A DNA stretch of 64,000 nt from the NCBI RefSeq assembly GCF_044647545.1, contig NZ_CP172818.1. One strand, written 5' to 3'. This document shows, piece after piece, positions 33,151 to 33,550 of the stretch (position 1 is the first letter of the stretch; every line of letters starts with the position of its first letter). This DNA is from Escherichia coli. Its GTDB lineage: Bacteria > Pseudomonadota > Gammaproteobacteria > Enterobacterales > Enterobacteriaceae. Under the pieces are notes generated by a model. It was given only the letters and a program-made list of their open reading frames with translations, did not search any database and had not been told where the DNA came from. The position numbers and the translations under genes were made by a program.

Positions 33151-33550
33151 ATGACGTTACCGAGTGGACACCCGAAGAGCAGATTGATCAAAAAATTTAC
33201 CGCACTAGCCCGTATATCGTGAAGGTAAGTGCGAAGATAATCGATTCTTTTTCGATTGTCTGGCTGTATGCGTCAACGTGAAACCGGCACCGGAAGTGCG
33301 TGAGTTCTGGGGCTGGTGGATGGAACTGGAAGCGCAGGAATCCCGTTTTACCTACAGTTACCAGTTTGGTCTGTTCGATAAAGCAGGCGACTGGACGAGT
33401 GTTCCGGTAAAAGACACTGAAGTGGTTGAACGACTGGAGCACACCCTGCGTGAGTTTCATGAGAAGCTGCGTGAGCTGCTGGCGACGCTGAATCTGAAGC
33501 TGGAACCGGCGGATGATTTTCGTGATGAACCGGTGAAGTTAACGGCGTGA
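33151..33550 (+). pseudogene. crl: Crl (sigma-S assembly factor) with frameshift: two single-base deletions near codons 20-25
   Basis: ATG at 33151 gives [23 protein letters not shown] (stop 33220-33222); a different frame from 33221 gives [39 protein letters not shown]...KLTA. Region 33208-33220 is 13 nt where an intact Crl needs 15. Confidence 0.8.

Follow-up and report, generated by a model that had tools for sequence, protein, structure and literature searches.

A doubly deleted crl gene beside an MG1655 IS1I site is probably an artefact of a K-12-templated consensus

The crl gene in the window (the whole 64,000-nucleotide stretch of Escherichia coli DNA that was analysed) lacks two single bases near its 5′ end, and its reading frame is broken. 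Our reading, to which we attach a probability of roughly 80%, is that the broken crl is an artefact of a consensus templated on K-12 and not a mutation. By its features the window is no natural contig; it looks like a K-12 MG1655-based consensus made from the reads of another strain. The sequence-only reading that drew attention to crl had implicitly taken the window for a faithful genome sequence. This assumption gave way to several signatures of K-12 templating and to the position of the lesion, which abuts the site of IS1I in MG1655. The real isolate most likely carries the intact 133-amino-acid Crl of its lineage (WP_000174682.1).

The ATG of crl at 33151 opens a frame of 23 codons, which encodes MTLPSGHPKSRLIKKFTAL followed by ARIS and closes at the TGA of 33220-33222. 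A second frame, from 33221, ends in KLTA with its stop codon at 33548-33550, and the first possible start within this shifted frame is a GTG at 33278. The elements of the locus are as follows.

33151 to 33222, plus strand: truncated crl reading frame, with 19 native codons, then ARIS, then TGA
33208 to 33209, plus strand: first missing base, one G in place of the GG of all references (crl nt 58-59)
33217 to 33218, plus strand: second missing base, one T in place of the TT of all references (crl nt 68-69), by which the codon ATT becomes AT
33221 to 33550, plus strand: the rest of crl, residues 25-133 and the stop codon, in the shifted frame and otherwise identical to the ST648 allele

The identity of the gene was established in three ways. 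The frame at 33221-33547 matched the NCBIfam Crl equivalog NF008217 over model positions 25-133 with 178.8 bits (E 4e-53; the curated cutoff is 117 bits), and Crl repaired in silico scored 225 bits over positions 1-133; the 90-amino-acid product also carries a Pfam PF07417 record. The gene occupies its conserved position between frsA (31849-33093, upstream) and phoE (33589-34650, minus strand, downstream, followed by proB). In all relatives, the homologous locus bears the annotation "sigma factor-binding protein Crl". The earlier assignment of the gene to crl is thus confirmed.

We aligned the crl region to IAI39, FDAARGOS_497, MS6198, W3110 and MG1655. The window lacks two bases and no more, each from a run of two. 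The segment at 33208-33220, GCCCGTATATCGT, measures 13 nt, compared to the 15 nt of GGCCCGTATATTCGT in the intact genes, just as the sequence-only reading had counted. Its claim that crl is split by two single-base deletions, for which it had asked for an alignment to intact crl, likewise stands. It had named the lost bases as one G and one C; the G was correct, and the alignments show the other base to be a T. A continuous reading frame of about 133 codons is not present in the window as given, where the frame ends after 23 codons.

The lesion is private. In a megablast search with window positions 33100-33600 as query, the crl locus was present in 5,404 of 5,426 complete E. coli genomes, with best matches of 501/503 bases, and the window allele occurred in none of the 5,426. 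The exact 34-nt junction was absent from the GTDB species-representative genomes. Exact look-up of the 90-amino-acid C-terminal product returned some 24 contigs in which crl, on the same allele background, is broken at its N-terminal end; the double deletion was found in none of these, and the approximately ten N-terminally broken ones that were examined show different lesions. Those lesions are a frameshift from A6 to A5 at crl nt 41-46, a CGA to TGA change at codon 33, a start-codon change and assembly gaps, and several of the contigs belong to visibly error-rich assemblies. The sign of a genuine pseudogene, namely the same lesion in independent assemblies or close relatives, had no occurrence for crl in these searches. 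Natural and stock-derived loss-of-function alleles of crl resemble the window lesion in that the latter, if real, would also truncate the protein early. They differ in that none carries the double deletion, whereas the one in the window is unique and linked to a junction of the template.

The sequence in which this private lesion lies is otherwise that of a known lineage. The backbone, from about 5.1 to 37.5 kb, is nearly identical to the ST648-type genomes FDAARGOS_497 and MS6198, which agree with each other in sequence across the region. The differences of the window from this pair amount to one SNP (at 16793) and clusters at structural junctions. Between 29524 and 37500 the two gaps in crl are the sole differences, with 0 substitutions. 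Between 8022 and 15161 there are likewise 0 substitutions and one difference in a T run, which is the ykfM frameshift of FDAARGOS_497 itself, MS6198 being in agreement with the window. In the alignments of about 30 kb of backbone to the closest relatives, no non-junction indel was found besides the pair in crl. Thus, the crl lesion is not chance noise.

In a tblastn comparison with 34 K-12 proteins, all backbone genes are of full length except crl, yafE (disrupted by junk sequence) and yafQ. The toxin gene yafQ (approximately 21929-22203, minus strand) is frameshifted beside an intact dinJ. As the same frameshift is annotated in both FDAARGOS_497 and MS6198, yafQ is a genuine pseudogene of the lineage. 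An error-rich assembly was rejected as an account of the window, given the full-length backbone genes and the lack of non-junction indels relative to ST648.

Upon this ST648 backbone the window displays the structure of K-12. The segments concerned are the following.

28635 to 28643: the exact K-12 rtcB′-prfH′ deletion breakpoint, flanked on both sides by ST648 alleles
37501 to 64000: the K-12 CP4-6 prophage, kept base for base, which we read as unpolished template; absent at thrW in the ST648 relatives
53707 to 54469: IS1 within CP4-6, of a foreign isoform, the change being confined to the boundaries of the IS

The CP4-6 segment extends over 26.5 kb, is joined at thrW to the ST648-type backbone and keeps the IS30, IS5 and ISEc19 insertions of K-12. 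Comparison of 37501-64000 with W3110/MG1655 gave 56 differences, all of them within 53704-54459. At thrW, the ST648 relatives lack CP4-6 and carry an integrase remnant only. The IS1 of the segment is 99.5% identical to that of a 6.85-kb plasmid (LR130560.1), a rare isoform, and the four residual differences from the plasmid IS1 all carry the K-12 base. One mismatch, at 53704, lies just beyond the end of this IS1.

The rtcB′-prfH′ breakpoint reads TTTTTACCCGGCA|AGACGTC and lies between TACCCGGCA and TACCCGACA repeats; rtcB and prfH are intact in all relatives. The aspV island has the small structure of K-12, at a place where the ST648 relatives carry a T6SS island. Within it, the fragment of an ISAs1 (H-repeat) transposase at 15162-15420 is 94% identical to K-12. 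This value is what a template artefact would be expected to produce, because the isolate's own ISAs1 reads would have piled onto the fragment. Position 1 of the window corresponds approximately to K-12 coordinate 223,995, a possible pointer to K-12-like coordinates to which we give no weight.

Where the ST648 genomes and K-12 differ in structure, the backbone is garbled or has lost single bases.

7975 to 8021: A-rich junk of 47-48 nt at the 5′ end of yafE, in place of about 220 bp of ST648 sequence that K-12 lacks
20194 to 20207: the lpcA-yafJ spacer, in which the ST648 sequence is short of one G and three T's; at this place K-12 carries REP elements of 149 bp
23427 to 23445: the yafL-flhA′ junction, from which the approximately 890-bp rayT segment of K-12 is gone, with dropped bases
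29165 to 29523: garbled remnant between prfH′ and pepD, where ST648 has about 740-800 bp that are absent from K-12

The junk in yafE, CCCCCTTTAAAAAAAAAAAGACACCAATACAACACAACAAAAAAAAAG, is the ST648 sequence minus G, T and C bases; it ends in CAAAAAAAAAG and disrupts the gene. At the yafL-flhA′ junction, the 87-bp spacer of ST648 is reduced to 6 nt (23427-23432), and beside it, at 23442-23445, are two substitutions and one indel. The remnant between prfH′ and pepD, of about 340 nt, can at first be recognised as ST648 sequence with bases dropped and then decays to poly-T and poly-A, with perfect ST648 identity restored at 29524. The corresponding ST648 segment encodes a YdjM-family hydrolase and a small hypothetical reading frame. 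The longest common subsequence of the junk at 29237-29523 with ST648 was 272, against 265 ± 2.2 for shuffled sequences, a weakly discriminating measure; the ST648 homology of the first 160 nt or so of the remnant is clearer in alignment than in this test.

The window is thus found to hold K-12-identical CP4-6 DNA where the sampled lineage has none, K-12 breakpoints together with ST648 alleles (rtcB′-prfH′, yafE, rayT and REP), insertions relative to the template that were lost or garbled into junk, and repeats that were converted (IS1 and the ISAs1 fragment). The crl lesion itself coincides with a structural difference specific to MG1655, on the premise of a template that bears IS1I. A natural strain with CP4-6 was considered and rejected on the K-12 breakpoints that accompany ST648 alleles, the junk, and the conversion of IS1 confined to the IS boundaries. 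A laboratory recombinant of K-12 and ST648 was rejected on the same evidence. A consensus on a K-12 template explains all of it: the K-12 breakpoints with ST648 alleles, the conversion limited to repeats and the junk.

In the mechanism that we propose, reads of an ST648-type isolate would have been laid onto the K-12 MG1655 reference and a consensus called. The behaviour resembles that of a long-read polisher on a foreign template, the kind of pipeline (tool and read type) being judged from the outcome. Where the structure of the isolate equals that of the template, the consensus would be essentially perfect. Where the isolate has no counterpart, as at CP4-6, the template would be kept unchanged, an uncovered region of 34 kb being left as template. 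Extra sequence of the isolate would be lost or turned into base-dropped junk, long insertions not being representable. Extra or substituted sequence of the template would be removed, with gaps made up to about 1 kb, and the adjoining isolate sequence would lose bases in the process. These features are alike to the known reference-bias artefacts of template-guided consensus calling or polishing, in which the template is kept at no coverage, multi-mapped reads convert repeats, long insertions are truncated or garbled, and small indel errors arise beside large gaps.

The structural difference that bears on crl is the insertion of IS1I in MG1655. The crl::IS1 allele of U00096.3 (NC_000913.3) is documented (PMC5210515, PMC10578931). 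In NC_000913.3 the first fragment of crl ends at nt 71, the target duplication comprises nt 72-79, and IS1I follows nt 79. The corresponding feature of the window is the following.

33220 to 33227, plus strand: TGAAGGTA, the 8-bp IS1I target that is duplicated in MG1655 crl; presumed template junction

The missing bases lie 2 and 11 nt upstream of this target site; measured from the IS1 end, the distances are 10 and 19 nt. The MG1655 allele and the window lesion affect the same gene within the same 5′ stretch of about 20 nt (IS1I after nt 79; nt 58-69 in the window), and both predict a Crl-null state. They differ in what is seen there: MG1655 has a 768-bp IS1 and an 8-bp duplication, whereas the window has no IS, two missing bases and the ST648 allele. 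We read the window lesion as a by-product of the removal of IS1 from the template and not as an independent allele. Removal of 776 bp (IS1I and the duplication) from the template would have left the two dropped bases in crl, the template being, as we infer, the IS1I-bearing version of MG1655.

The form of the lesion, dropped single bases, is the form of error seen at the other template junctions. As the junctions, about seven, cover approximately 1% of the backbone when taken at ±25 bp, a chance adjacency of the crl lesion to one of them is unlikely. The consensus has no indel error outside junctions over about 30 kb. A pair of random errors at a spacing of 9 nt is hence not credible, and some local cause must be at work. 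The suggestion in the sequence-only reading that the clustering could reflect assembly error is upheld by the signatures of a K-12 template, by the lesion being private and by its position beside the IS1I site. Two observations count against the artefact. The dropped bases fall within sequence shared with the template, to the left of IS1I, and not at the IS1 end. Furthermore, the content of the window fits MG1655 and the K-12 strains with an IS1-free crl (W3110, BW25113) equally, and a template with an IS1-free crl would have no junction at crl.

A genuine crl-null allele, in which the isolate lost G58/59 and T68/69, be it by two events or through a single complex one (error-prone synthesis, for example), appears unlikely to us. 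The freedom of the consensus from indel errors outside junctions, by which random error is unlikely, speaks for it, as does the standing of crl as a recurrent target: MG1655 carries crl::IS1, and other N-terminal lesions (the A6 to A5 and CGA to TGA changes) are found in several public assemblies. Yet the lesion is private to a sequence with demonstrable artefacts of construction, and it has the same dropped-base form as the other template junctions. The distance of 2-11 nt to the IS1I target site of MG1655 would remain an unexplained coincidence, and it is very improbable that 8 kb otherwise free of SNPs acquired two −1 mutations independently at a distance of 9 nt. A more specific version, which we offer as speculation, is that of a real double deletion in an ST648 clinical isolate, generated by one complex event in the same segment of about 20 nt as IS1I, and adaptive as a Crl-null state that attenuates sigma-S. 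Were it real, the overlap with the IS1I segment would suggest a hotspot of mutation or selection. More speculative again is low-level +1 slippage at UCG-UGA-A, by which Crl would be restored with ARIS in place of GPYIR. Programmed ribosomal frameshifting was rejected for crl, which is one continuous reading frame in all relatives, and UCG UGA A is not known as a slippery +1 site.

A generic error of consensus or sequencing with no link to IS1I would also yield missing bases, for example on a K-12 template free of IS1 at crl with a local problem of coverage or alignment. We consider this very unlikely. It agrees with the consensus artefacts that the window clearly holds and with the loss of each base from a two-base run, but about 30 kb of backbone show no further non-junction indel, and errors as close as 9 nt call for a local cause, with no candidate other than IS1I known at this place. 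Deliberate inactivation, or a laboratory K-12 × ST648 hybrid with an engineered frameshift in crl, is barely conceivable: K-12-identical DNA does adjoin non-K-12 DNA, and the intuition of the sequence-only reading was that two hits so close look designed, but its suggestion of deliberate inactivation fails for lack of any scar, cassette, restriction site or designed in-frame stop, and recombination would have kept the donor structure in donor segments, not K-12 breakpoints with donor alleles, nor junk.

According to Typas et al. (2007; cited in PMC10578931 and PMC7527412), Crl promotes the association of sigma-S with core RNA polymerase. The earlier inference that the lesion means loss of Crl holds if the lesion is real, as 19 native residues and ARIS cannot form the protein and would amount to a null Crl. 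The consequence would be less sigma-S holoenzyme, reduced sigma-S-dependent expression (including that of curli) and increased motility, as in MG1655 crl::IS1, and the loss would plausibly have been selected in the host or during storage. Loss of Crl is a well-known and recurrent route to lower sigma-S activity. A real lesion would still be ordinary, one more allele of a known class, and of small biological importance. The artefact matters more for the use of the sequence. A window that mixes ST648 alleles with the structure and sequence of MG1655 should not serve as a faithful genome, and the pseudogenes crl and yafE, the chimeric rtcB′-prfH′, the low-complexity sequence at 29.2-29.5 kb, an ST648 CP4-6 and the converted IS1 would all be spurious as biology. 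The case also offers a diagnostic, which is the occurrence of private indels adjoining structural differences specific to a template.

Minor observations concern three other places. Over about 32 kb of backbone just one substitution is private, a C at 16793 in place of the T shared by ST648 and K-12, and it is nonsynonymous in ivy; the exact Ivy variant of the window was matched on just one metagenome contig, of 1.7 kb (ERZ27250816). In rrnH (16S/ITS/23S), positions 455, 1692, 1699 and 2081 differ from FDAARGOS_497, some of them being equal to K-12, and these differences probably represent a consensus across rRNA operon copies. Lastly, four unrelated public contigs have in common the loss of one A (A6 to A5) at crl nt 41-46. 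It could be a real homopolymer hotspot or a long-read error, the latter being considered because some of those contigs have many broken genes.
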